In this document: one piece after another, positions 2,685 through 26,443 of the stretch
Numbering within the stretch: position 1 is the first letter of the stretch
Layout: each line of letters starts with the position of its first letter
Assembly (NCBI RefSeq): GCF_028293835.1
Contig: NZ_JAQGNX010000179.1
Coordinates: 49,169 to 113,168 of the forward strand
Direction: 5' to 3'
Source of the DNA: Pseudomonas sp.
GTDB lineage: Bacteria; Pseudomonadota; Gammaproteobacteria; Pseudomonadales; Pseudomonadaceae
Length of the DNA: 64,000 nt
Notes under the pieces: model-generated
The model's database searches: none
Told to the model about the DNA's origin: nothing
The model's input: only the letters and a program-made list of their open reading frames with translations
Program-made: the position numbers and the translations under genes

Positions 2685-4703
2685 TCAGCACGCCAGCGGC
2701 TGTAAAGGCGTCTCGGTTGCACACAGCCCGAGCACCGCATGGTAAGCGTCATGCACCGCGTCGCCAATTCGACCACCCCGGCGCGCATCGCCAATAGTCG
2801 TGACCGGCAGGTGTGCCTCCAGCAGCTGGTTCAACAAGGTTTCGTCCGGACTTCTGCCTTGGGCAATCAGCACGCCCAGGGTCTGGAGTTCGGTACGTTC
2901 GCCGGCGGTGTGCTGAAGCTCCACTCGGCCATCTTCGTGAATTCGCACGATGCTGCTGTTATCCAGAATGCGGATAGACGTGTTGCTGAACAGGCGTTGC
3001 TTCAGCACTCCGCGATAAATCATTTCGGCGGAGCGGGCCAGTTGCGACCGGGGCGAGCGGCTGACCAGCACCACTAAGTAACCTAGGTCACTTAACAGCT
3101 CTGCGGTTTCGCAACCGGTTTCGCCGCCGCCGTACACCAGTATTGGCAAGTTCGGGTCGGGCGCCGGAAGGCTAGCGATGTCCCCCATCAATAGTTCGTA
3201 CGCATCCAGCACTGGTCGGGTATCGATGCCGTCAATGGCAAGGCGCAACGCCCGACCGCCGATGGCAAGCAAGACAATCGCTGGCTGAGCCGGTCCGCCC
3301 AGCGTTGCCAGATCGATATGACTATTGAGGTAGACCTCAACCGCACTCTTGTCGAGTTGACGTATCAGATAACTGAGGTACCAATTCAGTTTGTCTTTGA
3401 AAGGCGGCGCTGCTGAAGCAATCAAACCTCCACCGAGGTCGCTGCGACTTTCGTGCAACTCAGTGGCAAAACCGGCCTGCTGCAACATCAACGCTGCGGC
3501 CATACCGCCAGGGCCACCTCCCACGACCACTGCGCGCTGACCACGACGAGCACCCGCGTCCGGGAGGCGGTCCAGTTCATGACCACTGCGTGGATTCTCG
3601 GCACAGCCGATGGTGCCGTGGGGGCCGGAGCTGATGGCGACACAATAGTTACAGGACGTGCAGGGTCTGATGTCCAGTGCCGCGCCGCGTCGTGCCTTGT
3701 TTGCCCATTCGGGATCGGCCAGCAACGGCCTGCCCAGCGCGATCATGTCGGCATCACCTTCACGAATGGCGCGTTCGGCGGTTTCTGGCCAGCGAATCTG
3801 TCCGACACTGATCACCGGCACGTCCACCGCTTCACGGATCCGCCGCGAGTAGGGCAGGCGCCAGCCTTCAGGTGCAGACATAGGCTCGATGACTTTGTCA
3901 AAGCTGGTCCAGCCCAGTCCGATAGACACATGCAACGCGTCTACGCCCGCAGACACTAGTTTCGGTGCGATGCGTACCATGTCGTCAATGCTCAGCCCCT
4001 GAGGGGTAAATTCGTCGGCCGAGAGCCGGTAGATCAGCGGGCGATCACCGATACTTTGGCGCACCCGCTCAATGACCCGGCGCGGGAAGTTCAGGCGTTT
4101 TTCCTCGTCTCCTCCCCACGCGTCGTTACGATGATTGCTGTAGGGAGACAGGAAAGCGGTCAACAGATAGCCATGGGCGCCATGTAACTCGAATGCCTGA
4201 TAACCGGCCAGTACGCCCAGCTCTGCGCTTGCGCCAAAACATTCAATCAGGTACTCGATTTGCTCTGGCGTCATGGCGCTCGCCACCAGGCGGTCGGGGG
4301 AAGAGCGTGAACTGACATCGCTGGGTGCCCAAGGCATTCCATCCACAACCAGTTCGCGCTTGGCGCCCTGGCCGCCGTGCTGCAATTGCAGGCAGGCCAC
4401 GGCGCCCGTCGAGGTTATGGCTTCGACCAAACGCTGATGGCCAGCGATATGGGAGGGGGACTCAAGGGTCAGCTGGCGATGTTCGGACCGGCCGCTGGCA
4501 GAGTCAACGCAACAGAACTCCACGACAATCATGCCGGTTCCACCTTTGGCACGCTCTCTATAGAAGGCGATTTGTTCCGGTGTCACGCGTCCATCCAGTC
4601 CACCCAGATTTGTCGACATCGGCGCCATGACTGTCCGGTTAGGGATAATCAGATTACGCAATCGAATGGGTTCAAAGAGACGCGGGTAGGGGTTGTTAGG
4701 CAT
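2685..4703 (-). CDS. Old yellow enzyme family NADH:flavin oxidoreductase with Fe-S and FAD domains (FadH/BaiH/TMADH-like)
   Basis: NRTVMAPM, ELHGAHGYLL, CTSCNYC...C Fe-S cysteines, VVVGGGPGGMAAA Rossmann motif, second GGGETG motif. Confidence 0.88.
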   Translation of the reverse strand: MPNNPYPRLFEPIRLRNLIIPNRTVMAPMSTNLGGLDGRVTPEQIAFYRERAKGGTGMIVVEFCCVDSASGRSEHRQLTLESPSHIAGHQRLVEAITSTGAVACLQLQHGGQGAKRELVVDGMPWAPSDVSSRSSPDRLVASAMTPEQIEYLIECFGASAELGVLAGYQAFELHGAHGYLLTAFLSPYSNHRNDAWGGDEEKRLNFPRRVIERVRQSIGDRPLIYRLSADEFTPQGLSIDDMVRIAPKLVSAGVDALHVSIGLGWTSFDKVIEPMSAPEGWRLPYSRRIREAVDVPVISVGQIRWPETAERAIREGDADMIALGRPLLADPEWANKARRGAALDIRPCTSCNYCVAISSGPHGTIGCAENPRSGHELDRLPDAGARRGQRAVVVGGGPGGMAAALMLQQAGFATELHESRSDLGGGLIASAAPPFKDKLNWYLSYLIRQLDKSAVEVYLNSHIDLATLGGPAQPAIVLLAIGGRALRLAIDGIDTRPVLDAYELLMGDIASLPAPDPNLPILVYGGGETGCETAELLSDLGYLVVLVSRSPRSQLARSAEMIYRGVLKQRLFSNTSIRILDNSSIVRIHEDGRVELQHTAGERTELQTLGVLIAQGRSPDETLLNQLLEAHLPVTTIGDARRGGRIGDAVHDAYHAVLGLCATETPLQPLAC

Positions 4704-4797
4704 GGAGTGACTCCTGATTGTTCGCCCTCGTTGAGCACTGACCCGGCACTGAAGTACGGGGCAAAAACGGCAGCGTTGGATTTGTTGTGATGTTCTA

Positions 4798-4818
4798 TAG
4801 CTGACGATATATCAGTTA
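4798..4818. promoter_or_regulatory. Palindromic operator candidate TAGCTGAC-GATAT-ATCAGTTA
   Basis: Imperfect inverted repeat 95 nt upstream of the OYE start, in the divergent intergenic region; same motif recurs at 17435, 26299, 26423, 28049. Confidence 0.7.
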
Positions 4819-5275
4819 TTTAGGCATTGCCAGTGAAGAATGTGAATCTGCCTGACTGGGCCGGGGCTGACAGGCGTTTAGCCAGAAGGTTAGAGTGGCC
4901 TGTCGACGCATCGGCTAGCTTGAAAAGCATTGGTGGTTTGCGGCGCCATAGCTGGTCAAGGTTTAGCTGCTGGTTTTTGATACCTGAGGACGTAGTCCAA
5001 ATATTATTCTTAAGGACCGCATAACGTCTTGAATAGAAAGAAAATATGTACCCGACAAGAAAAACTTTTCAGAAAGCCTATTGCGAATAGCTGACGGTAT
5101 GTTAGCTTGGCGTCGGAGGTTCTGAAGGGCTGCTATCAACGGCTGAATGATCTGATGTTGTGGTTTAGGATCTTCCTTGCGATAGTGTTTTCTGTTCTTC
5201 ATGCCCAGCGTCTAGCCCCTGTTTTCAGGGGTGAGCCGAAAATAACAAACCGATTTGAATCGGAGAGGCAGGCCA

Positions 5276-6994
5276 GTGAAAACAACAACAATAAGTAACG
5301 CTAGCAGTCGATACGTCAGTTTTAAAAAGCCGTTATGTATGCCGTGCTCTGTTGCATTCCTACTGGGCGTGGTCGGCAGCAATTGTGTGCAGGCAATAGA
5401 AGTCGATACCGGTATTCCCGATGTCAGCGTGCGTTGGGACAACACCTTTCGCTACAACCTCGGAATGCGAATGGAAGGGCAGAACAGCGACTTTTCCAAA
5501 TCGCCGTTTTATGACGATACCGAGCATAAATTCGGGCGTGGCGATGTTGTCACCAACCGGGTCGATATCATCAGTGAGCTCGATGTGGCCTGGAAGCAAG
5601 CGAATGGCTTTCGATTGAGCGCGGCGGGATGGTATGACGACGCCTACAAAGGCAGCGACTCGCCGAATCCAGACCTGACCGGTAGCAGCAACTACATCAA
5701 TAACCACTACAACAGTTACGCCAGCCGTTACATCGCCGGTCCGTCGGGTGAGATTCTCGATGCGTTCGTTTTTACCGGCTTCCAACTGGGTAATGTGGGC
5801 GTCAATATCAAAGCGGGTCAGCACAATGTCTATTGGGGTGAATCGCTTTACTCCATCGGCAACAGTATCGCCTACTCCCAAGGTCCGGTTGACACCATCA
5901 AGGCAGCAACCAGTCCGGGCGCGGAGGCCAAGGAACTGTTCTTGCCGCTGAAGCAGATCTCGACAACGGTTCAGCTCACTGATGAATTGTCATTCGCTGC
6001 GCAATATCTGTTGGACTGGAAACCTTTCCGCCTGGTGCCTGGCGGTACGTACTTCTCGTCGGCCGATGGGGCCCGTTCGGATCTGGGCGCACCGGCAGAT
6101 ATTTTCCAGATTCCAAACGGTCGTGATATCGAACCGGATAGCCATGGTGACTATGGCTTGAACCTACGGTGGAGCCCTTGGTGGCTGGGCGGCACGGCGG
6201 GTGTCTATTACCGCAAGTTTGCTGAAAAACTGCCGTGGAGCTTTACCCAGGTCGGTGTTCAGCAAGTGGCGCCGGGTGTATTTGCCGGGATTCCAAACGC
6301 GATTCGCTTCAACTATGCCCGTGATACCGAGCTGTACGGCTTGAGCCTGACTAAAACCCTGGGCACCGTGAGCGTTGCGAGCGAAGTGTCTTATCGGCGT
6401 AATACAGCGCTGAACTCGGTGGCGGGCTTTACCGTGATCTCAAGCGGCGATGCCGGATATGCGCAAGCCGAAGGTGCCCGAGGTGACAGCCTTCATGCGC
6501 TGGTCAACGGTATCTATCTGTTGCCCAAAACGCCCATCTGGGACGGTGGTACATTTCAGGCGGAGTTGGCTTACAACAAGCTGGAAAACATTACTGAGAA
6601 CGCTGATCGATTCAATGGTCGCGGTCACGGTTGCGTGACGGCGTATAGCAAGAACTGTGCAGATGACCATTCATTAGGCATGCAGATGGGCTTCACTCCG
6701 CAGTGGCCGCAGGCCTTTCCGGGTTGGGACATGTCGATGCCGTTCTCTCTGGCATACGGTATAGATGGCAACAGCCCTACGTTGGGTGGTACTAACGAAG
6801 GCGCGTACAACTATTCGGTGGGCATCAATGGTGTCTGGAAGAACCAACACAACTTTACGTTGGCCTGGATAGACTCGCACGCCGATTATAAAGTCAACCC
6901 GGCCAGCGGCTATGTCACCAGCGATTATACAAATGGCTCGGCTGTACAGAATAACCATGGCTGGCTGTCGTTTACCTACAAGACCACTTATTAA
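5276..6994 (+). CDS. DUF1302 family outer-membrane beta-barrel protein
   Basis: Signal-like N-terminus then VSVRWDNTFRYNLGMR, EILDAFV, GQHNVYWGES, C-terminal WLSFTYKTTY; start GTG 5276 after GGAGAGG is my best guess. Confidence 0.8.
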   Translation: MKTTTISNASSRYVSFKKPLCMPCSVAFLLGVVGSNCVQAIEVDTGIPDVSVRWDNTFRYNLGMRMEGQNSDFSKSPFYDDTEHKFGRGDVVTNRVDIISELDVAWKQANGFRLSAAGWYDDAYKGSDSPNPDLTGSSNYINNHYNSYASRYIAGPSGEILDAFVFTGFQLGNVGVNIKAGQHNVYWGESLYSIGNSIAYSQGPVDTIKAATSPGAEAKELFLPLKQISTTVQLTDELSFAAQYLLDWKPFRLVPGGTYFSSADGARSDLGAPADIFQIPNGRDIEPDSHGDYGLNLRWSPWWLGGTAGVYYRKFAEKLPWSFTQVGVQQVAPGVFAGIPNAIRFNYARDTELYGLSLTKTLGTVSVASEVSYRRNTALNSVAGFTVISSGDAGYAQAEGARGDSLHALVNGIYLLPKTPIWDGGTFQAELAYNKLENITENADRFNGRGHGCVTAYSKNCADDHSLGMQMGFTPQWPQAFPGWDMSMPFSLAYGIDGNSPTLGGTNEGAYNYSVGINGVWKNQHNFTLAWIDSHADYKVNPASGYVTSDYTNGSAVQNNHGWLSFTYKTTY

Positions 6995-7033
6995 AGCTGC
7001 ACCCGTTAGCCTGCCAAACGTGAGGGTTAGTCC

Positions 7034-8413
7034 ATGAATAATAAAAACATCGTAATGTGGGGCGCTGTCAGCCTGCTGTTCGCAAGCCAGGTCATGGCGG
7101 CGCCTACGGACGAAGAGATTAAACAGCTAGGCACTACACTGACACCGCTGGGTGCCGTTAAAGCTGGTAACGCAGACGGCTCGATCCCGCCGTGGACCGG
7201 GGGCATGTGCACCATTCCGCCAGGCTACAAACCCATCATGGGCGACAAAGGTGGTTCGCCTTATGTCGATCCATTTGCCAATGAAAAACCCTTGTTTAGC
7301 ATCACAGCGGCCAACATGGCGCAGTACAAGGACAAGATCGACGATGGCACGCAAGAATTATTCAAGCGTTACCCTGAAAGCTTTCGCGTTGATGTTTACC
7401 CCTCCCATCGGACGGCTTGCTTCCCGCAGTGGGTCTATGACAATACGATTAGTCGAGTGAAAAACCCACAAGTGGTTGGTGCTGCGCCAAGTTTGGCCAA
7501 TGCCCACGCACAATATCCCTTCCCGATTCCCAAAACCGGGTATGAGGCGATGTGGAACTCGAACGTCAAGTATGAGCTGCCCTATAGCGAAGGCACTCAG
7601 GCAGCCTATTTGATTGATACCTCGGGCGGCGTCACGCTGACCGGTGTGCAGAAAATCGAAAACCGAAACTTGTTCTGGGATAACTCCATGGACAAAATCC
7701 CGGACAACCAACCGTATTGGGCATTGATTGCCAGTACCACTGCGCCTGCACAAGCTGTGGGCGTCAAGCAACTGCGCCATTCGTTTCTGGAAGCTCAGGA
7801 TCGCGAGAACATGGCATGGTCCTATATCCCGGGACAGCGCCGGGTCCGACTGGCGCCTGAGTTCAAATACGACACCGTCAGTACCACCAGCGGTGGTGTA
7901 TTACTGTTCGACGAGATCAACGGTTTTGACGGCAAGATGGACAAGTTCGACTTCAAACTCGTCGGTCGGCGCGAAATGTATGTGCCTTACAACGACTATA
8001 AGACCTGGGATGCCGATCCGGTCGCAATCAACACGCCCAAGCACCTGAACCCGGACTACCTCCGTTGGGAATTGCACCGGGTGTGGGTGGTGGAAGCGAC
8101 GCTCAAGCCAGGTGAACGGCATGTACAGAAGGTCAAGCGTTTCTATCTGGACGAGGACAGCTGGAGCATCCTGACCTACGTTTCGTTTGATCAGGCTGGC
8201 AAGGTCCACCATTTGATGTACCAGCCTTCGATCCAACAGTATGAAAAACCGGCTTACCGCAATGGGCAGTACGTGCTCTATGACTTGACCAAGGGTGTTT
8301 ACTCCAATGGCTCGCTCATGGCTGCGCCGAAAATGACCGGCTTCTACAAGGTCGATGCCTACCCGGGCAGCTACTTCTCGCCGGGCTCGCTGGCCGGTTC
8401 CGGAGTACGTTGA
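7034..8413 (+). CDS. DUF1329 family periplasmic protein
   Basis: Signal peptide; LGTTLTPLGAVKAGNADGSIPPWTGG, PFPIPKTGYEAMWN, YIPGQRRVRLAP, WELHRVWVVEATLKPGERH. Confidence 0.88.
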   Translation: MNNKNIVMWGAVSLLFASQVMAAPTDEEIKQLGTTLTPLGAVKAGNADGSIPPWTGGMCTIPPGYKPIMGDKGGSPYVDPFANEKPLFSITAANMAQYKDKIDDGTQELFKRYPESFRVDVYPSHRTACFPQWVYDNTISRVKNPQVVGAAPSLANAHAQYPFPIPKTGYEAMWNSNVKYELPYSEGTQAAYLIDTSGGVTLTGVQKIENRNLFWDNSMDKIPDNQPYWALIASTTAPAQAVGVKQLRHSFLEAQDRENMAWSYIPGQRRVRLAPEFKYDTVSTTSGGVLLFDEINGFDGKMDKFDFKLVGRREMYVPYNDYKTWDADPVAINTPKHLNPDYLRWELHRVWVVEATLKPGERHVQKVKRFYLDEDSWSILTYVSFDQAGKVHHLMYQPSIQQYEKPAYRNGQYVLYDLTKGVYSNGSLMAAPKMTGFYKVDAYPGSYFSPGSLAGSGVR

Positions 8414-8506
8414 CCCCTAAGTCATTGAGCATTTGGGGGGTGTGATGCCCCCTGTTTCACGCTCACTGCGTCGAACTCCCATGAACCGTACTGCTGAGAG
8501 GATGAA

Positions 8507-9574
8507 ATGACGACTGTGGGTTGTAGGTTACTGTTGGCCGCGCTCTGTGCCATGGCCCTGTCGGCTCGGGCTGATGCGCAAACGGGTTTCATGGACCCTC
8601 TGGATCGCCCCGCATCGTCTATCAGTCAGTTGACGAGGGCGCACCTGAACAGTGTGACCACGGCAGGCAAGCGGCTGGTCGCAGTGGGTGCCAGAGGCTT
8701 GATCATGTTCTCCGATGATGCGGGGGCCAACTGGTCCCAGGCGCCTTCTCCCGTTTCGTCGGACTTGCTCGGCGTAAATTTTCCGACACCGGAACAAGGT
8801 TGGGCTGTGGGTCACGAAGGCGTGATCCTGCACACCGCCGATGGCGGCCTAAGCTGGAGCAAACAACTGGATGGTCACGCCGCGAGCGCGTTGCTGACCG
8901 AACATTTTGACGCATTGGCGGCGGCCGGTGATCCCACCGCCGCAGTGTTCCAGGAGGCGGTCAAGCTCAATTATCAAGACGGCCCTGAACAAGCCCTGAT
9001 GGATGTCTGGTTCTCCGATGAGAACAATGGGGTGGCGGTGGGCACCTTCGGTACGCTGTTCGCGACCCACGATGGCGGCCGGCATTGGGAGTCCTGGATG
9101 GAGCGGGCGGACAACCCGGATCTTCTGCATTACATGGCAATTTCCGGCAGCGGCAGTGAGATGTACATCGCCGCAGAGCGCGGTGTGGTGTTCAAACTTG
9201 ATCCCCGCACCCAGCGCTTCATACGACTGGAAACTGGCTACCTGGGTAGTTTTTTCAGCATCAAGGCCACTTCACGGATGATTGTTGCCGCTGGCTTGCG
9301 GGGCAGCGCCTACAAATCCTCGGATGGGGGCGTCACTTGGCAAACCTTGCCTACCGGCATCAACGTCGCGATCAGTGATGTCCAGAGCTTGCCCGATGGT
9401 CGGTTTTTACTGGCGGGCGTCGATGGCAAGGTGGTGATCAGCGATGCCGCTGTACGCGGCTTCTCCCCCATGGCGGTTTCTCGCTTTGGACGATTTACCA
9501 GTCTGGTATGGCTCAATGACGGCAAAGCCGTCAGCGTCGGATTCTCCGGGGTGCGAGAAGTCTCTGCGCAATAG
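8507..9574 (+). CDS. YCF48/BNR-repeat beta-propeller protein
   Basis: Signal peptide; repeated S/T-x-D-x-G-x-x-W boxes (SDDAGANW, TADGGLSW, THDGGRHW, SSDGGVTW). Confidence 0.85.
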   Translation: MTTVGCRLLLAALCAMALSARADAQTGFMDPLDRPASSISQLTRAHLNSVTTAGKRLVAVGARGLIMFSDDAGANWSQAPSPVSSDLLGVNFPTPEQGWAVGHEGVILHTADGGLSWSKQLDGHAASALLTEHFDALAAAGDPTAAVFQEAVKLNYQDGPEQALMDVWFSDENNGVAVGTFGTLFATHDGGRHWESWMERADNPDLLHYMAISGSGSEMYIAAERGVVFKLDPRTQRFIRLETGYLGSFFSIKATSRMIVAAGLRGSAYKSSDGGVTWQTLPTGINVAISDVQSLPDGRFLLAGVDGKVVISDAAVRGFSPMAVSRFGRFTSLVWLNDGKAVSVGFSGVREVSAQ

Positions 9575-9608
9575 CTACCGGACGCTCCCGTCATTTTCAG
9601 AGGCAACT

Positions 9609-12110
9609 ATGGTTTTATTGAAAGCGCTCGACATGCCGGTCATTGCGGACCCTGCCGACTTTGACAAAAACAGCGGCAACTGGCTCGAAAGGCTAGTGTT
9701 CAATCACCGCATCAGTGTGATCTTGCTCTGTGGGGTGTTGACGTTATTCTTCGGCTGGAACGCACTGAAGTTACCGGTCAATACCAGCTTCGAGAAAATG
9801 ATTCCGCAGTCCCATCCCTATATAAAAAATTACCTCGAACACCGTGATGCGCTCCGTGGCATGGGTAACGCAACGCGAGTCGTGGTGGAAAATACTAAGG
9901 GTGACATCTTCGATAAAGACTATTTGCTGACGCTGCAAAAGGTCAACGACGCCGTTTACCTGCTACCCGGCATAGACCAGGGTTGGATGCGCGGGCTGTG
10001 GACCAGCAGCTTGCGTTGGACCGAAGTCACCGAGGAAGGTTATCGGGGCGGCCCCGTCATCCCGGATCGCTGGGACGGTAGCCCAACCTCCATGGACCGC
10101 CTGCGTGAAAACATCAATCGAGCAGGCATCGTTGGCAGTTACGTGGCCAACAATCTGAAGTCGTCGATGATTTTTGTGCCATTGCTCGATCTTAATCCTG
10201 AGACCAGGAAGCCACTGGATTACGCGGTTTTTTCGAGGCAATTAGAGGACAAGGTGCGGTCGCTGGAGACCGACACCATCAAGATCCACATCATTGGGTT
10301 TGCCAAGATCGTTGGCGATTTGATTGATGGCATGTATTCGGTGATGGCGTATTTCGGTTTCTCGGTGCTAATCGCCACTGCGCTGGTGCTGGCCTACACC
10401 CGCTGCCTGCGCAGTACGCTATTGCTGGTGTTCTGCGCCTTACTCGGCGTGGTCTGGTTGCTGGGCTTGCTCAGTGTGCTCGGCTACGTGCTTGATCCGT
10501 ATTCAATCCTGGTACCTTTTCTGATTTTCGCCATCGGTCTGTCCCACGGTGCGCAGAAGATGAACGGGATCATGCAAGACGTGGGGCGAGGCACCCATAA
10601 ATACGTGGCTGCTCGCTACACCTTCCGCCGATTGTTCATGGCGGGGCTGACTGCGCTGCTGGTGAATATCGTTGGTTTTGCAGTGCTGATGATCATTGAT
10701 ATCCCTGTGATTCGCGACATGGCCCTGACCACCAGCCTGGGCGTCGCTATCCTGATTTTCACCAAGCTGTTTTTGATACCGGTGCTGCTGTCCTATTTCG
10801 GCGTGAGCGCTGACGCGGCGCGGCGCAGTGTGCAAACGACGAATCAGATAACGGCCGGACGGAGTCCGATGCAGGCCATCCGCAGTGGCCTGATCCGACT
10901 TACTGAACGGCGTCGTGCCACGATTACCGTTGCGCTCGCCGCCGTGCTGGCCTGCGCAGGGCTTCTGATCGGTCACCACGTGCAGTTTGGGGACCTTAAT
11001 CCGGGCGCGCCGGAGTTGCGGCCGGAATCGCGCTATAACCGCGACGTAGCCTTCGTGACCCAGAATTACGGGCTGTCAACGGACCAGTTTGTGGTCATGC
11101 TCAAAACACCGGCTGGGGAATGCACCCAGTTCTCATCGCTGACCGAAGCGGACCGTTTGAGTGCCCGCCTGCGCGAATTGCCCGGTGTACAGACCACCTT
11201 TTCGCCCGCGGACGGCATTCGTCTAGCCACATCGGGGATGTTTGAGGGCAACCCCAAATGGATGACAATCCCGGTCAATACCAGCACCCGCACCCAAGCC
11301 TTCAACATGTTCGCCACGGACCGGCCGGAACTGGTCGATAGGTTCTGCGTCATCACACCGGTGATTGCTTATCTGGCAGACCACAAGGCGGCGACGCTGG
11401 ACCGCGTAGTGAAAGAGGTCGAAGCCTATGGTGCGGAGTTCAACACCGAATCACGCACGTTCCTGTTGGCCGCCGGCAGCGCTGGTATTGAAGCGACCAC
11501 CAATATTGTGGTCAAACGCAGCTTCTGGACCTTGCATCTGGTGCTCTATGGCGCAGTGGCGTTGCTGTGTTTCATTACCTTCCGCAGCTGGCGTGCGGTG
11601 GTGGTAGCGATTATTCCGTTAATCATCACCTCGATCCTGTGTGAGGCGCTAATGGTGATGCTGAACATCGGGATTAAGGTCGCCACGTTGCCAGTCATCG
11701 CGGTGGGTGTTGGTGTCGGTGTCGATTACGCGCTGTATTTGCTCAGCGTGCAGTTAGGCATGCAGCGGCACGGCATGACCCTGGCCAAGTCTTATGAAGG
11801 CTCGCTTGATTTTGTCGGCCGAATCGTCGGTCTGGTCGGATTGACCATGGCCGCAGGGGTTATTCCGTGGATATGGTCACCCATCAAATTCCAGGCGGAC
11901 ATGGGCATTCTGCTGAGCTTCATGTTCCTGTGGAACATGGTCGGTGCGTTGGTACTAATCCCTGCGCTGTCTTACTTTCTGCTGCGTACACCGGCCGATG
12001 ATGCACCGCCTGAGCAGCGGGACATGGACGCAACCTCAGCGACGAGCCCATCTGAGGAGCCGTTGGGCGAACCTGGCAAAGAAACCATCAAGCAACGAAT
12101 TACTGCCTGA
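9609..12110 (+). CDS. RND superfamily (MMPL-like) transporter
   Basis: Two repeats of TM plus large loop plus TM bundle; GVGVGVDYALY motif; ATG 9609 with GAGG RBS. Confidence 0.88.
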   Translation: MVLLKALDMPVIADPADFDKNSGNWLERLVFNHRISVILLCGVLTLFFGWNALKLPVNTSFEKMIPQSHPYIKNYLEHRDALRGMGNATRVVVENTKGDIFDKDYLLTLQKVNDAVYLLPGIDQGWMRGLWTSSLRWTEVTEEGYRGGPVIPDRWDGSPTSMDRLRENINRAGIVGSYVANNLKSSMIFVPLLDLNPETRKPLDYAVFSRQLEDKVRSLETDTIKIHIIGFAKIVGDLIDGMYSVMAYFGFSVLIATALVLAYTRCLRSTLLLVFCALLGVVWLLGLLSVLGYVLDPYSILVPFLIFAIGLSHGAQKMNGIMQDVGRGTHKYVAARYTFRRLFMAGLTALLVNIVGFAVLMIIDIPVIRDMALTTSLGVAILIFTKLFLIPVLLSYFGVSADAARRSVQTTNQITAGRSPMQAIRSGLIRLTERRRATITVALAAVLACAGLLIGHHVQFGDLNPGAPELRPESRYNRDVAFVTQNYGLSTDQFVVMLKTPAGECTQFSSLTEADRLSARLRELPGVQTTFSPADGIRLATSGMFEGNPKWMTIPVNTSTRTQAFNMFATDRPELVDRFCVITPVIAYLADHKAATLDRVVKEVEAYGAEFNTESRTFLLAAGSAGIEATTNIVVKRSFWTLHLVLYGAVALLCFITFRSWRAVVVAIIPLIITSILCEALMVMLNIGIKVATLPVIAVGVGVGVDYALYLLSVQLGMQRHGMTLAKSYEGSLDFVGRIVGLVGLTMAAGVIPWIWSPIKFQADMGILLSFMFLWNMVGALVLIPALSYFLLRTPADDAPPEQRDMDATSATSPSEEPLGEPGKETIKQRITA

Positions 12111-12189
12111 GGTCCTTGACGCCCGAGACAGAGAATTCTGTCTTGTGGCTTTCTGCACTCGTTTATTAACCTGACGCCGGAGACATCGT

Positions 12190-14409
12190 GTGGATAAGCG
12201 TGGAATTCTGGACGGACTGACGATCATTGACTTGGGCACCGGACACGCCGGTTGCGTAGCCGCACTGCTGCTTGCTGAGGCCGGTGCCGATGTGCTGCGT
12301 ATTCAACCTCGGCAATGGCAGTGCCCTTTACAACCCGGCCAAGCGGCGCTGTGGAATCGTTCGAAGCGTTTGCTGGAATTGGATCTGGACCAGATTGAAG
12401 GGCGCGATCAGCTGAATAAACAGCTGGACAATGCACACCTGCTGATCAGCGATCTGTTACCCCTTCAAGCCAGCCAGCTTGGCCTGAGCAACGAATACCT
12501 GCGTCGGGGCCGCGAGCAGTTGGTGCTAGTAAACATCTGCGGAGCACCCGGATCGGACCTGCCGGTGGATGATCTTTTAGTGATGGCCCACGCCGGCATC
12601 CTTGATGAGCAAGCGGCCGTGGGCCGCGAGGGGCCGGTGTATTTACGTTTCCCACTGGGCAGTTGGCACGCGGCATTTCTCGCCGCCATAGGTGGGTTGT
12701 TGCGCCTGCGCCAGGGTCACGGCGGGGTGGTCCAGACCAGCTTGTTACAGGGGGCGTTGATCCCGCTGATGATGCATTGGCACGAGACTGAAAACACCTC
12801 GCCTGCCTTGCAACTGGGGATGCCAAAATCCGTGCCTCCAACCTTGTTTCAATGCGCTGACGGAAAATGGCTGCACGTCATGCCTGACCCTAATCGGGCT
12901 CCGGAAGTTCGCCAGGCACTGGATGCCCTTGACCCCCAACAGCGCAGTGCTGCAAACGCTGAATTTGCCCATCAGCCCATTACCTGGTTTAAGGATCGCG
13001 GCGCGATGGCGCTGGTATTTCGCACACGGCCACGGGATGAATGGTTGGCGTTGTTGCAAGTCGCCGACGTACCGGCGGACAAAGTGGCGGCCATGGGTGA
13101 GTTGTACCTGGATGAACAGGCCTGTGCCAATGGCTACGTAAAGGAAATCGATACTGCCCATGGTTTGACCTTGCAGCCAGCGATTCCGTTAGTGGCTGAA
13201 GCGTTGGACGCCATCTCGCGGTGGCATCCGCCAGCGAGGAGTGCACACCAGGACTTCTCGAAGCCGTTGCTCGGATTGAACGTGGTGGATTTAGGGGCGT
13301 TTGTTGCCGGACCACTGGCGCCAATGTTGCTGGCTGATCTTGGCGCTGAGGTCATTAAGGTTGAACCGCTCAATGGCGATCCGATGCGAGTGGCGGAGTG
13401 GCCGTTTAATGCCTGCCAGCGCGGTAAGCGCTCATTGGCATTGAACCTCAAGTCTCCCTCTGCACAGGTCATCACGCAGCGTTTGGTGGAATGGGCAGAT
13501 GTCATTCATCACAATCAACGCATGCCGGCTATAGAACGCCTGGGCTTGGGGGGCGAGGCACTTCTGGCCTGCAAGCCGGACCTGATTTACTGCCATGTCA
13601 GTGCGTACGGCGCCAAAGGGCCACGGCGTGATTGGCCAGGTTACGATCAGCTGTTCCAGGCCGCCTCCGGTTGGGAAAGCGAGAGCGCAGGGCAGGGCAA
13701 CGAACCGACCTGGCTGCGTTTTGGCATGATGGATCACCTGGCGGGGCTCGCTTCTGTTCTCGCAGTGACGCTGGCGCTGTTTGAACGCGACCGTTGCGGC
13801 AAGGGCCAAGCCGTGTCCAGCTCACTGCTTGCGGCCAGTCTGTTTACCATGGAAAGTCCCGCCGACCCCGAGGGGCGTTTGCAGGACTTCGCTCATCTGG
13901 ACTCGGGTCAGTTAGGTGTGGCGCCCTTGCGTCGACTCTACCCGTGTCGGCACGGTTGGATTGCGGTGGCCCAGCGGCCTGGCGATGAACACGGATTGGC
14001 AAGGGTATTGACCCTCGCGGGTGTGAGCAACGTCCAGCAATTGACCGCCACAATGGCCGGCTTATCAGTACCTGAGGCCCTGTTGCTGTTCGACGATGCC
14101 GACGTTCCAGCGGTAGAAGCGCGGACCGATCAGAAGCAAGCGTTTCTCGATAATCCGGGCAATCGCCGAAGCGGTCTGGTGGTGGACTTCCCACACTCAC
14201 GCTATGGCCGACTGACCCTGCCAGGGGGCTTCTGGCATTTCGATGACCAACCGTCGACCGTCGGGCCATTGCCACCGCCTCTTTTGGGGGAGCACTCACG
14301 GATTATTTTGGAAGAACTAGGGTTTGACGAATTGCAGATAAATCAGTGGGTCGCGCAAGCGTTAGTTTACGACCCCGGCTCGTTAGGTTCAGCGGAGTTA
14401 AACCGATGA
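12190..14409 (+). CDS. Family III (CaiB/BaiF) CoA-transferase with two fused domains
   Basis: N-domain LDGLTIIDLG...AEAGADVLRI...NRSKR; C-domain LLGLNVVDLGAFVAGP...ADLGAEVIKVEP...QRGKRS...GYDQLFQA; 739 aa. Confidence 0.85.
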   Translation: MDKRGILDGLTIIDLGTGHAGCVAALLLAEAGADVLRIQPRQWQCPLQPGQAALWNRSKRLLELDLDQIEGRDQLNKQLDNAHLLISDLLPLQASQLGLSNEYLRRGREQLVLVNICGAPGSDLPVDDLLVMAHAGILDEQAAVGREGPVYLRFPLGSWHAAFLAAIGGLLRLRQGHGGVVQTSLLQGALIPLMMHWHETENTSPALQLGMPKSVPPTLFQCADGKWLHVMPDPNRAPEVRQALDALDPQQRSAANAEFAHQPITWFKDRGAMALVFRTRPRDEWLALLQVADVPADKVAAMGELYLDEQACANGYVKEIDTAHGLTLQPAIPLVAEALDAISRWHPPARSAHQDFSKPLLGLNVVDLGAFVAGPLAPMLLADLGAEVIKVEPLNGDPMRVAEWPFNACQRGKRSLALNLKSPSAQVITQRLVEWADVIHHNQRMPAIERLGLGGEALLACKPDLIYCHVSAYGAKGPRRDWPGYDQLFQAASGWESESAGQGNEPTWLRFGMMDHLAGLASVLAVTLALFERDRCGKGQAVSSSLLAASLFTMESPADPEGRLQDFAHLDSGQLGVAPLRRLYPCRHGWIAVAQRPGDEHGLARVLTLAGVSNVQQLTATMAGLSVPEALLLFDDADVPAVEARTDQKQAFLDNPGNRRSGLVVDFPHSRYGRLTLPGGFWHFDDQPSTVGPLPPPLLGEHSRIILEELGFDELQINQWVAQALVYDPGSLGSAELNR

Positions 14410-15200
14410 ATCTGGGATTGACTGGCAAAGTCGCCTTGGTCTCAGGTGGCAGTAAAGGTATCGGTCGTAGCTGTTGCGAATTACTGGCCGATGAAGGCTG
14501 CAAGGTCATGGTAGTTGCGCGCGGGGCCGATGCCGTAGAGCAGACCGTGGCCGAGCTGCGTGCGGCGGGCGGCATTGCCAGCGGTGTGTGTGCCGACCTG
14601 ACTCAGCCTGCCGAGGTGCAACGCGCCGTTTCAGCGACCTGCCAGCTTTATGGATCGCCCGACATCGTGATCACCAATGTCCACGGCGGTGAGCCCAGTG
14701 ACTTTTTCACAGGCGATACCGACGTGTTTTTACATGCATTCCAGGCGCAGGTGATGAGTGTGGTGCACTTGGCCAGAGCGACGGTGCCGCACATGCGCGA
14801 ACGGCGTTGGGGGCGCCTGCTGACCATCGGCACTGCGGCGGCGAAGGAGCCAGTTTCTGGCCTGAAGTTGATGGCCGCAACCACCGCCCGCGCGGCAGTG
14901 GTGACCTTGAACAAGTCACTGGCGGATGAGTTTGCCAGCGACGGAATCACCGTCAACACCTTGGCGACGGGCTGGATAGCCACGGCAACCATGCTTGAAG
15001 AAGTAGCGCGCATGGGCGCTGCCCGTGGCCTGTCTGCTGAGGCAATGATGCAGCGATTGACTAAGGCAATTCCCGTGGGACATGCGGGCGATCCGCAGCA
15101 AATCGCATCAATGGCGGTCTACCTATGCTCTGATTTAGCCGGGTATATCACGGGCTGCTTGATTCCGGTCGATGGCGGCGCCCATCGCAGTGCCTGGTAA
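14406..15200 (+). CDS. Short-chain dehydrogenase/reductase, atypical active site
   Basis: ATGA overlap with upstream gene; GGSKGIG cofactor motif; no YxxxK (LMAATTARAA at that position). Confidence 0.82.
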   Translation: MNLGLTGKVALVSGGSKGIGRSCCELLADEGCKVMVVARGADAVEQTVAELRAAGGIASGVCADLTQPAEVQRAVSATCQLYGSPDIVITNVHGGEPSDFFTGDTDVFLHAFQAQVMSVVHLARATVPHMRERRWGRLLTIGTAAAKEPVSGLKLMAATTARAAVVTLNKSLADEFASDGITVNTLATGWIATATMLEEVARMGAARGLSAEAMMQRLTKAIPVGHAGDPQQIASMAVYLCSDLAGYITGCLIPVDGGAHRSAW

Positions 15201-15215
15201 TCGCCTGGGGTGGAA

Positions 15216-16757
15216 ATGACGCACGCACTGATAAAAGCGACGACGCTCTGGCAACTGTTGTTACGTCGGGCTCTCCTGACGCCGACCGCGATCATGGTGA
15301 TAGAAGGCCGAACACAGATGCGGATAACCTTTGCCCAGGCGCTGGACATCGCCGAACGCTTGGCTGCCGGATTCTACGAGCGTGGTATCAGGTCCGGAAC
15401 GACGGTGACCTGGATGTTGCCCACCGGCTTGCGGGCTGTCATTACGTCGCTGGCCCTGGCGCGCCTCGGCGCACTGCAGAATCCGATTATCTCCTTGTAT
15501 GGCGAGCGTGAAGTTCGGGCCATTCTGGAACGCAACCGGTCTGCTTATCTATTGATCGCCGACAATGACGGCCGTGATTATTCGGGCATGGCGAGGCTTC
15601 TCTGTGAGCAGTTGGCGCATCCCCCCCACGTGATCGTCATGGGCGAGGACCTGCCTCAGGGTCGGCCTTCCAGCTTGCCGCCGCCGCCCGTTGAAGGACA
15701 ATCAGTGCGTTGGGTCTATTACACCTCCGGCACTACCTCGGAACCCAAGGGCGCGTGTCATACCGATGAAACCTTAATGATCGGTGGACGTAATCTCGCA
15801 CGGGCCATGGGCGGCTGCGCTGCAGATATTGGCAGCATCGCGTTCCCTATCGCGCACATTGGCGGGGCCATGTACACCTGCATGGTGTTGGCCTCTGGCA
15901 TGAGTATGGTCTTGCTTGATCGTTTTCAAGCCCAGGAGGCTGCCACGGTCTTTCGCCGTTATAACGTCACTTTGACCGGCGGAAGCACTGCGCACTATCA
16001 GGCACTGTTGGCCGAGCAACGCCGTTGCCCGCATAAGTCTCTGTTGCCAGCGCTACGCCTGCTTAGCGGCGGGGGGGCGCCAAAACCCCCAGAGCTCTAT
16101 TACCAGATCCGTCGCGAAATGGGCTGCAGCCTGACCCACAATTACGGGATGACCGAGGTGCCGCTGATTTGTGCCGGGGTAGTTACTGACACCGACGAGC
16201 AGTTAGCGAACACCGAAGGCGTCCCCGTCGATGACGTCGAGTTGCGTATTGTGGGCGCTGATGGCCGTCTGGCCGGGGACGACGAATCGGGTGAGGTGCG
16301 CCTACGTGGCAAGGGCGTCTTCAAGGGCTATACCGACCCGGCCCTGACGACCGCCGCGTTCGATAACGAAGGATTTTTTCGCACCGGGGATTTGGCGTTG
16401 CGTCGCCCGGATGGCCGCATCGTGATCACCGGACGGCTCAAAGATGTGATTATTCGCAAAGGAGAGAATATTTCTGCAAAGGAAATAGAAGACCTGCTGT
16501 TCACCCATCCCAAAGTGGCCGGTGTTGCGGTCATCGGCTTGCCCGATGAGTTTCGCGGCGAACGCGTCTGTGCGGTGATTGAACTCAAGCGCGGGGTGTC
16601 TGCATTGCCGTTCGAAGAAATGGTTGCCTTCTTCGAGACAGCGCAGGTCATGCGACAAAAAATTCCGGAGCAACTGGAGATTGTCGAACAACTGCCGCGT
16701 AACGACACCCTGAACAAAGTTCTCAAACATGTGCTGCGTGAACGTTTCAGTCGTTGA
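15216..16757 (+). CDS. Acyl-CoA ligase (AMP-binding; resembles cyclohexanecarboxylate-CoA ligase type)
   Basis: YYTSGTTSEPKG, YGMTE, FRTGDL, GRLKDVIIRKGENIS, NKVLK. Confidence 0.85.
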   Translation: MTHALIKATTLWQLLLRRALLTPTAIMVIEGRTQMRITFAQALDIAERLAAGFYERGIRSGTTVTWMLPTGLRAVITSLALARLGALQNPIISLYGEREVRAILERNRSAYLLIADNDGRDYSGMARLLCEQLAHPPHVIVMGEDLPQGRPSSLPPPPVEGQSVRWVYYTSGTTSEPKGACHTDETLMIGGRNLARAMGGCAADIGSIAFPIAHIGGAMYTCMVLASGMSMVLLDRFQAQEAATVFRRYNVTLTGGSTAHYQALLAEQRRCPHKSLLPALRLLSGGGAPKPPELYYQIRREMGCSLTHNYGMTEVPLICAGVVTDTDEQLANTEGVPVDDVELRIVGADGRLAGDDESGEVRLRGKGVFKGYTDPALTTAAFDNEGFFRTGDLALRRPDGRIVITGRLKDVIIRKGENISAKEIEDLLFTHPKVAGVAVIGLPDEFRGERVCAVIELKRGVSALPFEEMVAFFETAQVMRQKIPEQLEIVEQLPRNDTLNKVLKHVLRERFSR

Positions 16758-17434: not shown

Positions 17435-17455
17435 AAACTGACATATAGTTAGTTA
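17435..17455. promoter_or_regulatory. Palindromic operator candidate AAACTGAC-ATATA-GTTAGTTA
   Basis: In AT-rich divergent region, 28 nt before the fused dehydrogenase ATG. Confidence 0.72.
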
Positions 17456-17483
17456 ATTTAATAAAAACTGCCTGGAGGGTTCG

Positions 17484-26422: not shown

Positions 26423-26443
26423 AAGCTGACACAAGGTCAGTTA
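26423..26443. promoter_or_regulatory. Palindromic operator candidate AAGCTGAC-ACAAG-GTCAGTTA
   Basis: 19 nt before the SDR ATG. Confidence 0.72.

Follow-up and report, generated by a model that had tools for sequence, protein, structure and literature searches.

Does a run of four envelope-protein genes beside catabolic genes carry their substrate into the cell, or does it carry something out? The question is raised by a 64,000-nucleotide stretch of Pseudomonas sp. DNA (the window), in which one forward-strand run, positions 5276-12110, encodes a DUF1302 barrel (A), a DUF1329 protein (B), a Ycf48-like propeller (C) and an RND protein (D). A preliminary description had delimited these four co-oriented genes and proposed that they form an import machine; the run lies exactly where it had been placed, to the base. 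The cassette is not new, in that its type has already been named (AmeABCD) and already been proposed as a transport system. What is new here is a conserved operator-like repeat that links the cassette operon with other promoters of its island, the presence of three cassettes in one genome, the excess of DUF1329 over RND copies, and a CoA-transferase insertion. A cassette type known in other bacteria is here tied to the control sites of enzymes that degrade a bulky fatty-acid-like compound.

Table 1. Genes and operator-like repeats of the locus, in window coordinates
Feature	Position	Strand	Remarks
OYE-type Fe-S flavoenzyme (BaiCD / 2,4-dienoyl-CoA-reductase-like)	2685..4703	-	PF00724, PF07992
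Operator-like box 1 (AGCTGACGATATATCAGTT)	4799..4817	.	OYE side of divergent promoter region
Operator-like box 2 (AGCTGACGGTATGTTAGCT)	5089..5107	.	~170 nt upstream of DUF1302 start
A: DUF1302 outer-membrane beta-barrel, signal peptide	5276..6994	+	572 aa; PF06980 E 1.4e-106
B: DUF1329 soluble periplasmic protein	7034..8413	+	459 aa; PF07044 E 2.1e-118
C: Ycf48-like BNR beta-propeller, periplasmic	8507..9574	+	355 aa; PF14870 PSII_BNR/Ycf48 E 1e-23, BNR repeat
D: MMPL/HAE3-like RND inner-membrane protein	9609..12110	+	833 aa (likely start); PF03176 MMPL E 1.3e-11
Double family-III CoA-transferase	12190..14409	+	739 aa; PF02515, two matched stretches
SDR oxidoreductase	14406..15200	+	PF13561/PF00106; start refined via homology
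AMP-binding acyl-CoA ligase, last gene of apparent operon	15210..16757	+	PF00501, PF13193
Operator-like box 3	17436..17454	.	upstream of fused acyl-CoA dehydrogenase gene 17484-19811
Operator-like box 4	26424..26442	.	between ACAD gene 24697-25797 (-) and SDR gene 26463-27167 (+)

Identity of the four proteins

Domain matches, signal peptides, topology, fold and the recurring A-B-C-D order identify the cassette, with high confidence, as an AmeABCD-type four-part envelope transporter. Gene A has a GTG start with GGAGAGG upstream. A, B and C carry Sec-type signal peptides that have no lipobox, cut between VMA and AP in B and between ARA and DA in C. The longest frame of D begins at 9444, which gives a 130-nt overlap with C; the ATG at 9609, 34 nt past C, is the likely start. 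Intergenic gaps measure 34-93 nt inside the cassette, 79 nt before the CoA-transferase gene and 9 nt before the ligase gene, and the gaps of this cassette-to-ligase run hold no convincing terminator.

The AF2 model of A (pLDDT 81.4) is matched best in Foldseek by OccAB/OccD/chitoporin/AlgE-type barrels (TMq 0.35-0.43), and TolC-type structures are absent from its matches. For B, the model (pLDDT 86.6, pTM 0.88) predicts an N-terminal domain of ~150 aa followed by a C-terminal LolA-like half-barrel of ~290 residues. Its top Foldseek match is LolA3 (9tp6; E 2e-17, TMt 0.85), followed by 4z48 (TMt 0.79) and, lower, by LolA, LolB and RseB, while no PDB chain matches B by sequence. The model therefore bears out the LolA-like fold that had been expected of DUF1329, and we predict with high confidence that B works as a soluble carrier, its LolA-like fold being one that binds hydrophobic ligands. 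C matches Ycf48 structures (E ~3e-16).

D has ~12 TMS and two periplasmic loops of ~185 aa, spanning roughly residues 56-243 and 456-638. In NCBIfam it matches TIGR00921 HAE3 best (E 2.9e-44), with a score of 151 bits that falls short of the model's 352-bit cut-off, and HpnN chains are its sole relatives among PDB sequences (E 8.7e-5 over ~150 residues). Two residue pairs are invariant across 35 homologues: D706-Y707, which belongs to the TM10 motif GVGVDY, and S312-H313, which follows TM4. We assign D with high confidence as a proton-coupled MMPL/HAE3-like RND protein. In keeping with the earlier remark that no TolC or membrane-fusion protein accompanies the cassette, neither TolC/OEP (PF02321) nor FadL (PF03349) has a match on the cassette's contig, and HlyD/MFP has none among the flanking genes scanned. 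Structure searches returned neither a DUF1302 barrel nor any complex among these proteins, and the literature found does not establish a direction, which agrees with the preliminary statement that no mechanism has been resolved.

A common operator-like repeat in the catabolic island

The cassette had been described as co-oriented with a CoA-transferase, an SDR and a CoA ligase. All three genes are present on the same strand, but none of the 11 orthologous loci in other species has the CoA-transferase gene, the SDR gene there coming directly 3' of D, and DNA homology to these loci ends near 12004 and restarts at 14402. By this comparison the CoA-transferase gene is a recent lineage-specific insertion between D and the SDR gene and not a conserved partner; a paralogue (41%) lies at C90:41894-44080. 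In the 11 species the cassette is followed by the SDR and ligase genes in conserved order and faces a syntenic divergent OYE-ACAD operon, at 60-89% protein identity, the ligase gene and the OYE gene that heads the opposite operon each being found in 11 of 11 loci. In NCBIfam, the OYE protein scores 379 bits with NF041087 BaiCD, under the cut-off, and the best models for the ligase, cyclohexanecarboxylate-CoA and long-chain fatty-acid-CoA ligases, likewise all fall under theirs. The island also encodes an MFS permease, whose gene adjoins that of another CoA ligase. We assign to the ~56-kb island, with high confidence and close to what its sequence shows, a CoA-dependent, beta-oxidation-like breakdown of a bulky alicyclic/isoprenoid carboxylate.

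The inverted repeat AGCTGAC-N5-RTYAGYT has four distinct sites across the window, where 0.07 matches would be expected, and all four lie in promoter regions (Table 1). Box 2 is a near-palindrome, since the pattern matches both of its strands. All 11 orthologous loci retain boxes 1 and 2, on the cassette side, and 10 of the 11 have an equivalent of box 3. Genome-wide, 8 of the 24 motif sites, including all three perfect ones, fall inside C27:19456-75592, and the repeat of the cassette operon is common to at least five other promoter regions of the island. Because its promoter carries the operator-like repeat of the enzyme operons, the cassette can, on the DNA evidence, be placed within the island's regulon. 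A MarR gene lies in an operon with two boxes in its promoter, and the MarR-family repressor is the likely reader of the repeat and a candidate regulator.

Related cassettes in the genome and in Pseudomonadaceae

Full cassettes occur three times in the genome, each time in a different catabolic island, and are joined by one set that is split and one orphan pair of barrel and carrier. The second full cassette (C175) is flanked by alkyl-sulfatase, GMC-oxidoreductase and aldehyde-dehydrogenase genes, the third sits inside an acyl-CoA cluster, and the orphan AB pair adjoins GMC-oxidoreductase and aldehyde-dehydrogenase genes. These two further full cassettes, along with the literature, uphold the earlier claim that the arrangement recurs beside hydrophobic-substrate catabolic clusters. 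The split AB + CD set, at C181 and C17, lies outside any catabolic cluster examined, repeats the layout seen in P. putida and P. stutzeri, and is read as a housekeeping set. Chemoreceptor genes are located near two of the cassette-bearing islands, which leans toward uptake. A FadL-type channel is encoded on none of the three cassette-bearing contigs and only twice in the whole genome. Between paralogues, identity is 35-43% for A, B and C and 60% for D (56-57% in its periplasmic loops); the higher conservation of D may reflect only the slower evolution of polytopic membrane proteins.

The A-B-C-D order is found at 20 of 33 distant loci, and AB and CD lie near each other at three more. In a copy-number survey of 101 genomes, all from Pseudomonadaceae, DUF1329 (77 genomes) and the D-type RND (75 genomes) co-occur. 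DUF1329 copies number 443 versus at least 187 for the RND (one genome being counted as at least nine RND copies); 72 genomes have more copies of B than of D, five have the two in equal number, and none has fewer copies of B.

Comparison with known systems

The closest known system, AmeABCD of Castellaniella defragrans 65Phen, is a DUF1302/DUF1329/propeller/RND set in a monoterpene catabolic island (PMC6394551). The likeness covers the four families (DUF1302, LolA-like DUF1329, COG4447/Ycf48-like and COG1033/HAE3-like 12-TMS RND), gene order and size (605/451/316/787 aa in AmeABCD and 572/459/355/833 aa in the window). It extends to the lack of a membrane-fusion protein or TolC and to the setting within a hydrophobic-substrate catabolic island, AmeABCD being induced with its substrate. 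AmeABCD differs in its betaproteobacterial host and monoterpene hydrocarbon substrate, and its study describes no shared operator or regulator. Genes of the same four families are co-fit in Shewanella amazonensis (Sama_1588-1591), P. stutzeri and P. putida (PP_0765/0766 and PP_2018/2019) (bioRxiv 10.1101/072470; 10.1101/2020.07.04.188060; PMC10866462). For P. putida, AlphaFold co-folding led to the proposal of a 'substrate transport system', with strong C-D contact predicted and weaker B-A and B-D contacts (PMC10866462); we assume this architecture for the window proteins. These co-fit sets are housekeeping-type copies, 31-46% identical to the window proteins and with phenotypes that are pleiotropic or specific to ester substrates, whereas the window cassette is a catabolic-island paralogue.

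Other systems resemble the cassette in part. HpnN (hopanoid; PDB 5khn/5khs/6wu0) and BstABC (sterol; PMC10942540) pair an MMPL/HAE3-like RND protein having small periplasmic domains with a polycyclic lipid. In Bst the RND protein is also partnered with soluble periplasmic carriers, although of different folds. Both act outward in biosynthetic contexts, have no DUF1302 barrel, DUF1329 or propeller, and are only remotely similar. The Lol pathway (LolCDE-LolA-LolB) likewise links an engine in the inner membrane to an acceptor in the outer membrane through a soluble carrier, and the C-terminal ~290 residues of B form a LolA-type open beta-barrel in the model; here, however, the engine is an RND rather than an ABC protein, the acceptor is an integral barrel rather than a lipoprotein, and B has its extra N-terminal domain. 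The HAE1 pumps (AcrAB-TolC, TtgABC, MexAB-OprM) are also proton-driven RND proteins with envelope-spanning partners and a link to solvent tolerance. In contrast to them, the cassette has no membrane-fusion protein, TolC-family duct or ACR_tran-type RND; the periplasmic loops of D are ~185 aa rather than ~300 aa, and the outer-membrane part is a monomeric porin-like barrel.

Direction of transport

We tentatively favor inward transport of the island's substrate, the direction proposed in the preliminary description, as the leading reading ahead of efflux, although we hold it with less than even confidence. Barrel A would let the substrate, a hydrophobic or amphiphilic compound, pass the lipopolysaccharide layer, and B would pick it up and ferry it across the periplasm. 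A C-D complex using the proton gradient could then empty B into the inner membrane, at its outer leaflet. Flip-flop or transport by the island's MFS permease would come next, and with the CoA ligation that follows uptake would become irreversible. Specificity would be set by A and B, with D as a shared engine that barrel/carrier pairs encoded elsewhere might also use. The model for the unloading step is NPC2, a soluble lipid carrier that passes cholesterol to the RND-superfamily protein NPC1, which inserts its ligand in the membrane; whether NPC1 is coupled to energy is debated. To our knowledge, an 'inward' RND step has no precedent other than this pair. The carrier folds differ from that of B, and the two systems are likened by logic, not by sequence, NPC1 having an RND domain (PMC10942540).

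We lean to uptake because the operator is common to catabolic operons, barrel/carrier modules are more numerous than RND engines, and FadL is absent from the cassette contigs. The DUF1329 excess suggests many receptors served by few engines, as is typical of uptake, whereas efflux systems elsewhere show the opposite, several pumps sharing one exit duct. The orphan AB pair, the split set and the divergence of A, B and C relative to D point the same way. Pooled mutant assays show that P. putida requires its homologues for growth on Tween 20 and butyl stearate, which makes their function cell-private. Butyl stearate is insoluble and non-toxic, which argues against a tolerance function, but the reported fitness defects concern the fatty esters and not the free fatty acids. 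Against uptake, all characterized bacterial RND transporters known to us act outward, including HpnN, the nearest solved relative. Pathway-specific LolA-like carriers known so far are biosynthetic and outward as well (Lol, the flexirubin-locus LolA2/LolB2 and the Bst sterol system), and the DUF1329 protein ORF61 of Comamonas testosteroni is reported to be dispensable for steroid degradation. The MFS permease gene beside a CoA ligase gene also counts against uptake, and its presence means that the RND protein has a competitor for the inner-membrane step.

A valve for efflux or tolerance, induced by the substrate as has been proposed for AmeABCD, is a serious contender that we consider possible but not probable. 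D would pull a membrane-active substrate or intermediate out of the inner membrane's outer leaflet and pass it via B and A to the outside, holding the membrane load under toxic levels while the island enzymes consume it. RND polarity, the precedent of HpnN/MmpL-type lipid export from inner to outer membrane, and the invariant intramembrane Asp-Tyr pair of D, which fits proton antiport, are all consistent with this path, and actual import could be left to the MFS permease. MFS import and RND export within one regulon would, however, form a futile cycle unless tightly balanced. Comparative genomics of betaproteobacterial aromatic regulons has classed the four genes as solvent-stress genes, and cassette-linked substrates are often membrane-active (monoterpenes, phenols and p-cresol in the literature); the alkyl-sulfatase cluster of the C175 cassette points to alkyl sulfates. 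Deletion of ameABCD, the sole knockout and transport study of a catabolic-island cassette, lowered limonene tolerance above 5 mM and increased Nile Red accumulation, and its authors concluded export (PMC6394551). In our analysis these phenotypes are ambiguous. The mutant grows normally on acetate with up to 5 mM limonene, thus tolerating 3-5 mM, yet fails to grow on 3 mM limonene alone; the Nile Red difference is small and confined to cells treated with CCCP, a condition under which a proton-driven pump should idle (PMC6394551).

It is unlikely that the cargo is instead a cell-bound envelope component, such as an outer-membrane lipid, lipoprotein or surface-active molecule needed at the surface to contact or tolerate hydrophobic substrates, which would correspond to the 'export of a cell wall component' of Price et al. 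The pleiotropy of the four genes in Shewanella amazonensis and Pseudomonas stutzeri fits such a role, as do the occurrence of DUF1302 and DUF1329 proteins in Delftia nanopods and outer-membrane vesicles, the lipoprotein/lipid-carrier fold of B and the housekeeping reading of the split set, with its PP_0765/0766 and PP_2018/2019 layout. Nonetheless, it leaves unexplained the three diverged full cassettes, each in a different catabolic island, and the operator common to the cassette and acyl-CoA enzymes in 11 species, and A and B differ strongly from island to island, which suggests substrate-specific ligands.

Finally, the flanks of distant cassettes are heterogeneous (their 129 ORFs yield 133 Pfam families, each in five at most) and the CoA-transferase gene is a recent insertion, but an accident of island assembly with no functional link is very improbable given the short, terminator-poor gaps, the clustering of motif sites in the island, and the synteny and box positions kept across 11 species.

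A further member of the AmeABCD-type family

The cassette studied here is a further member of the known and widespread AmeABCD-type system, described as a four-gene set in Castellaniella defragrans 65Phen. Its genes encode a DUF1302 barrel (A), a DUF1329 carrier (B), a Ycf48-like propeller (C) and an MMPL/HAE3-like RND protein (D), and they open a tight plus-strand gene run (5255-16757) within a catabolic island of about 56 kb on contig C27 of a 5.7-Mb draft Pseudomonas sp. genome; the window spans C27:49169-113168. ORF and Pfam evidence agrees with the preliminary description of this four-part run, end coordinates included, and with its statement that TolC and membrane-fusion genes are absent nearby. 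Specifically, a Pfam scan finds no HlyD-family membrane-fusion protein (MFP) in the cassette or the scanned flanking genes, none appears among the 25 commonest families listed beside 33 distant cassettes, and a genome-wide search yields 35 TolC/OEP (PF02321) domain matches with none on C27, C175 or C90, the contigs of this genome that carry complete cassettes.

Coordinates of the cassette, its downstream genes and the operator-like boxes (window positions unless prefixed with the contig)
Feature	Position	Strand	Product or location	Pfam match
A	5276-6994	+	barrel	DUF1302 (PF06980), E 1.4e-106
B	7034-8413	+	carrier	DUF1329 (PF07044), E 2.1e-118
C	8507-9574	+	propeller	PSII_BNR/Ycf48 (PF14870), E 1e-23
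D	9609 (likely start)-12110	+	RND protein	MMPL (PF03176), E 1.3e-11, above cut-off
CoA-transferase	12190-14409	+	double family-III CoA-transferase, 739 aa
SDR	ends 15200	+	follows CoA-transferase
CoA ligase	15210-16757	+	AMP-binding; follows SDR
Box	4799		between OYE gene and A
Box	5089		between OYE gene and A
Box	17436		before fused ACAD
Box	26424		before an SDR
Box	C27:19456
Box	C27:19583
Box	C27:36435
Box	C27:41871

Sec-type signal peptides are present at the N-termini of A, B and C, and inspection of all three reveals no lipobox. The longest reading frame for D begins at 9444, 130 nt inside C. A plausible start is the ATG 34 nt past the C stop codon, which gives a protein of 833 amino acids; the 55 codons upstream of it (9444-9608), which are non-hydrophobic and of low complexity, are probably not translated. 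The resulting protein has 12 transmembrane segments (TMS), arranged as one TMS, a loop of ~185 aa, five TMS, one TMS, a second loop of ~185 aa, and five TMS. Among NCBIfam models it scores highest with TIGR00921 for HAE3 (151 bits; cut-off 352 bits), followed by the MMPL and HpnN models, and its PDB sequence matches are HpnN chains only (E 8.7e-5, ~150 residues).

Across 35 aligned homologues, TM10 keeps the motif GVGVDY (D706-Y707) without change, and S312-H313 after TM4, K690 and N776 are invariant too. The proton relay of HpnN/MmpL-type proteins presumably consists of paired Asp-Tyr in TM4 and TM10; D has the TM10 Asp-Tyr and carries S312-H313 at the end of TM4 instead, a presumed correspondence with MmpL3/HpnN residues, drawn from their motifs rather than from an alignment. 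The invariant residues would be compatible with a working proton relay, and they are silent on its direction.

Neither A nor B matches any PDB sequence, even at lenient thresholds; only fold comparison is informative for these two proteins. The LolA-like character anticipated for B emerges from structure prediction (Foldseek probability 1.0): in a model built from 43 sequences (pLDDT 86.6, pTM 0.88), the C-terminal ~290 residues superpose on Porphyromonas gingivalis LolA3 (E 2e-17, TMt 0.85) and on the structural-genomics entries 4z48, 3bk5 and 3buu, with LolA, LolB and RseB as poorer matches. The first ~150 residues are modelled as an additional domain. For A, the model (38 sequences, pLDDT 81.4) shows a large beta-barrel. 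Among solved folds, Foldseek places it nearest to Occ/OprD-type channels, chitoporins, general porins and AlgE, with modest TM-scores of 0.35-0.43 relative to the query. This limited likeness to porins agrees with a 2026 study that describes the DUF1302 family as a non-prototypical barrel lacking a solved structure and counts 18 strands; a strand-counting preprint is divided, with 18 strands in the results section but 16 in the discussion. Sequence comparison does reach C, which matches Ycf48 chains in the PDB at E ~3e-16. In the literature and the PDB we found no solved structure for a DUF1302 barrel, and none for the four proteins in any complex.

Comparison with known systems

The literature already contains both this gene arrangement and the proposal of a transporter that spans the envelope. 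In C. defragrans, AmeA is a DUF1302 protein, AmeB belongs to the DUF1329/LolA superfamily, AmeC to COG4447, and AmeD to a separate lineage within the HAE3 RND proteins; the genes lie in a monoterpene island and are induced by alpha-phellandrene (PMC6394551). The cassette described here has the same barrel, LolA-superfamily carrier and propeller, the same A-B-C-D order on one strand and the same absence of MFP and OMF genes. D has the two-loop, 12-TMS topology and may belong to the HAE3 lineage, with a TIGR00921 score below the cut-off. The cassette is likewise embedded in a catabolic island, with whose operons it shares an operator-like motif.

Recurrence of the module beside hydrophobic-substrate clusters, as stated in the preliminary description, is documented for the monoterpene island (PMC6394551) and for phenanthrene, p-cresol and steroid clusters (bioRxiv 10.1101/072470). 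In the latter study, Price et al. reported cofitness of the four genes, with pleiotropic phenotypes, in Shewanella, Kangiella and Pseudomonas, and proposed export of an envelope component. The P. putida set is split between PP_0765/0766 and PP_2018/2019, and growth on Tween 20 requires all four genes (PMC10866462; bioRxiv 10.1101/2020.07.04.188060); RB-TnSeq revealed fitness defects on the fatty esters Tween 20 and butyl stearate (bioRxiv 10.1101/2020.07.04.188060). AlphaFold co-folding of this set, published as a 'novel hypothesized substrate transport system', predicted that the propeller contacts the RND protein strongly and that DUF1329 contacts both the barrel and the RND protein less strongly (PMC10866462). 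A second study obtained an ipTM of 0.84 for a DUF1302-DUF1329 pair; between them, the published co-folding results cover P. putida and P. aeruginosa homologues.

The cassette differs from better-known envelope machines in several respects. Unlike an HAE1 tripartite pump, it includes neither an HlyD-family MFP nor a TolC/OEP duct, and A is a porin-like barrel. Compared with the Lol pathway, the engine is an RND protein rather than the LolCDE ABC transporter and A is an integral barrel rather than the lipoprotein LolB; the modelled LolA-like fold of B is the sole common feature. The similarity of D to HpnN/MmpL exporters is confined to the short match noted above and the TM10 Asp-Tyr, with S312-H313 at the end of TM4. 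Finally, A has no match to PF03349, the family of the 14-strand, lateral-opening FadL/TodX channels, and the two FadL genes of this genome lie on contigs other than C27, C175 and C90.

Two supposed relatives were discarded. The alkane-uptake proteins AupA/AupB of Marinobacter had been considered as possible DUF1302/DUF1329 proteins; in the paper on them AupA is called FadL-like, and neither domain is mentioned. Cycloclasticus PahS/PahP are unrelated, being a TonB-dependent receptor and a classic binding protein.

Gene order and an inserted CoA-transferase

The same block occurs in 11 other species, including Metapseudomonas resinovorans, Stutzerimonas stutzeri and P. taiwanensis, at 60-89% protein identity. 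In these loci two acyl-CoA dehydrogenase (ACAD) genes and the gene for a BaiCD-like Fe-S flavoenzyme (OYE) lie on one strand and A-B-C-D-SDR-ligase on the other, followed by isochorismatase, fused ACAD and thiolase genes. The preliminary description had placed a CoA-transferase, an SDR and a CoA ligase in the same orientation as the cassette. All three are indeed downstream on the plus strand, but the CoA-transferase is missing from all 11 orthologous loci, and DNA homology ends near 12004 and restarts at 14402, which makes this gene an insertion in the present lineage and not a conserved partner. A paralogue with 41% identity is encoded at C90:41894-44080, just upstream of the C90 cassette island.

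The A-B-C-D order is kept in the 11 orthologous loci and in 20 of the 33 distant ones; in 10 of the latter, A-B occurs with no C-D within 10 kb. A Pfam tally around the distant cassettes lists 133 families in 129 flanking ORFs, with the top families in 5 ORFs each and neither TolC nor MFP families among the 25 listed. The crude ORF calling adds noise to this tally, which indicates varied catabolic and regulatory neighbours and from which a single theme is not provable. Proteins with DUF1254 and DUF1214 adjoin distant cassettes in 5 of the 129 ORFs, joint commonest with AraC-type regulators (5).

A predicted regulon

When the 573 nt that separate the OYE gene from A were aligned for the twelve loci, two conserved stretches stood out: operator-like inverted repeats, or boxes, with the near-palindromic 19-bp pattern AGCTGAC-N5-RTYAGYT. 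With one mismatch allowed, the 64-kb window contains four distinct sites against 0.07 matches expected (six matches when two near-palindromic sites are scored on each strand), and all four lie in promoter regions. Genome-wide there are 24 sites, of which 8, including all three perfect matches, fall inside C27:19456-75592. The boxes mark at least six promoter regions of the island and are rare elsewhere in the genome. Both cassette-side boxes are kept in 11 of 11 orthologous loci and the ACAD box in 10 of 11; in paralogous and distant loci boxes are absent except for single matches within coding sequence. Scans of 4500-17600 for sigma-70 promoters and intrinsic terminators gave counts no higher than in shuffled sequence and carry no information.

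The shared boxes and their conserved positions place the cassette in the same predicted regulon as the island enzymes. Two boxes also precede an SDR-MarR operon (C27:19591-21044), which makes the MarR protein (gene at C27:20496-21044) the obvious candidate for the regulator that reads them.

Island content, paralogous cassettes and copy numbers

The island encodes at least five heteromeric or fused ACAD sets, four AMP-binding ligases, SCP-x-type and ordinary thiolases, a MaoC-type hydratase, several crotonase-type hydratases, SDRs, thioesterases, a KshA-like Rieske oxygenase and the BaiCD-like flavoenzyme; NCBIfam equivalog matches of these enzymes are all below cut-off. It looks like a region for CoA-dependent degradation of a bulky alicyclic or isoprenoid acid, and the KshA-like, SCP-x, MaoC, ACAD and BaiCD-like genes point to a steroid-, bile-acid- or terpenoid-like acid. 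Within the island, C27:26004-30448 holds in a row a CoA ligase, an MFS_1 permease (C27:27778-29109) and two thioesterases. This permease is a candidate for bringing the acid substrate across the inner membrane, and its presence led us to drop the idea that the cassette is the island's sole transporter.

The genome carries three complete cassettes (on C27, at C175:39672-46521 and at C90:56754-63617), one orphan A-B pair (C175:47659-50745) and one split set with A-B on contig C181 and C-D on contig C17. The second cassette and the orphan pair lie in a region (C175:29254-53903) with an SdsA1-like alkyl sulfatase, a second, arylsulfatase-type sulfatase, two GMC oxidoreductases, two aldehyde dehydrogenases, an AraC regulator, a bestrophin-like protein and a chemoreceptor, and this region looks like a cluster for utilisation of alkyl sulfates or long-chain alcohols (detergents). 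The C90 cassette lies within another acyl-CoA cluster. Methyl-accepting chemotaxis genes edge two of the three cassette islands (C27:14516-18167, where the gene adjoins an MFS_3 transporter, and C175:54983-57013), which hints that the substrates are attractants.

Comparison of the three full cassettes gives 35-43% identity for A, B and C and 60-61% for D, whose membrane segments (67-71%) are more alike than its loops (56-57%). The orphan A-B pair matches the C90 pair (C90:56754-59801) at 70% for A and 78% for B, compared with about 40% for other paralogue pairs; judged by these identities, it is a recent duplication of the outer two components only. Among 101 Pseudomonadaceae genomes, DUF1329 occurs in 77 and D-type RND proteins in 75, nearly always together, so that the module is present in about three quarters of the sample. 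Copies number 443 for DUF1329 (up to 17 per genome) versus at least 187 for the RND protein (at least 9 in one genome). B outnumbers D in 72 genomes, the two are level in 5, and D outnumbers B in none; the two counts are correlated (Spearman 0.82).

Direction of transport

Uptake of the substrate by the cassette, as put forward in the preliminary description, is reasonable, unproven and partly anticipated in the literature, and we give it not quite an even chance. The presence of many carriers per engine leans inward. In uptake systems one TonB complex serves many receptors, whereas in efflux many pumps share one TolC; carriers that outnumber engines follow the former logic and reverse the latter. 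We also count for uptake the absence of a FadL channel from the three cassette-bearing contigs and the predicted operator common to the cassette and the catabolic operons. Butyl stearate is an insoluble ester not known to be toxic, and the need for the P. putida genes on it in pooled assays argues against a secreted, shared function and for uptake.

The mutant data from C. defragrans are read in both directions. The ame deletion mutant grows poorly on hydrocarbon monoterpenes and normally on oxygenated derivatives, grows like wild type with acetate up to 5 mM limonene and worse above, and accumulates slightly more Nile Red in CCCP-treated cells, from which the authors concluded efflux (PMC6394551). 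Failure on limonene alone, with growth on acetate at the same limonene concentration, we count for uptake. The tolerance and dye results point outward, and efflux or tolerance is a serious alternative, if one we hold to be distinctly short of even. To our knowledge, all characterised bacterial RND proteins transport outward, with HpnN and the Bst sterol system as precedents. Pathway-specific LolA-like carriers are found in biosynthetic loci, and the MFS permease beside the ligase could do the importing. No single point is decisive, and several are mutually correlated. A different envelope cargo, in keeping with the proposal of Price et al., is unlikely, and a cassette with no functional link to the island, with which it appears to be co-regulated, is very improbable.

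Returning to uptake, we tentatively hypothesize, at somewhat less than even confidence, that AmeABCD-type cassettes in general drive energised uptake of hydrophobic nutrients, which would make them the first known bacterial RND systems with inward transport. Specific A-B pairs would capture different substrates at the outer membrane, and fewer, proton-driven C-D engines would unload them into the inner membrane. Such a scheme would be a formal bacterial counterpart of NPC2/NPC1 and, by analogy, a proteobacterial answer to the actinobacterial Mce systems.

The four-gene module is very common and adjoins pathways for terpenes, aromatics, detergents, lipids and steroid-like compounds. If import is true, it would overturn the rule that bacterial RND proteins export and would account for the uptake of insoluble substrates by Gram-negative degraders, a question of importance to bioremediation and strain engineering. 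If export is true, the module is a widespread, substrate-specific tolerance valve. Our additions are modest: the conserved predicted operator and candidate MarR regulon, the status of the CoA-transferase as an insertion, three island-specific paralogues in one genome, and the copy asymmetry between carrier and engine. With its conserved operon, recognisable operator-like box, candidate MarR protein and three diverged paralogous cassettes in one genome, the locus is a test bed, and the pattern of many carriers per engine predicts that orphan A-B pairs depend on a C-D pair encoded elsewhere.

In Thalassolituus oleivorans, an obligate hydrocarbon degrader, TOL_3187/TOL_3188 comprise an MMPL-LolA-like fusion and an adjacent porin-like protein and are induced 42-fold on the n-C28 alkane (PMC6304351); they may represent the same way of transport in a related, fused form.
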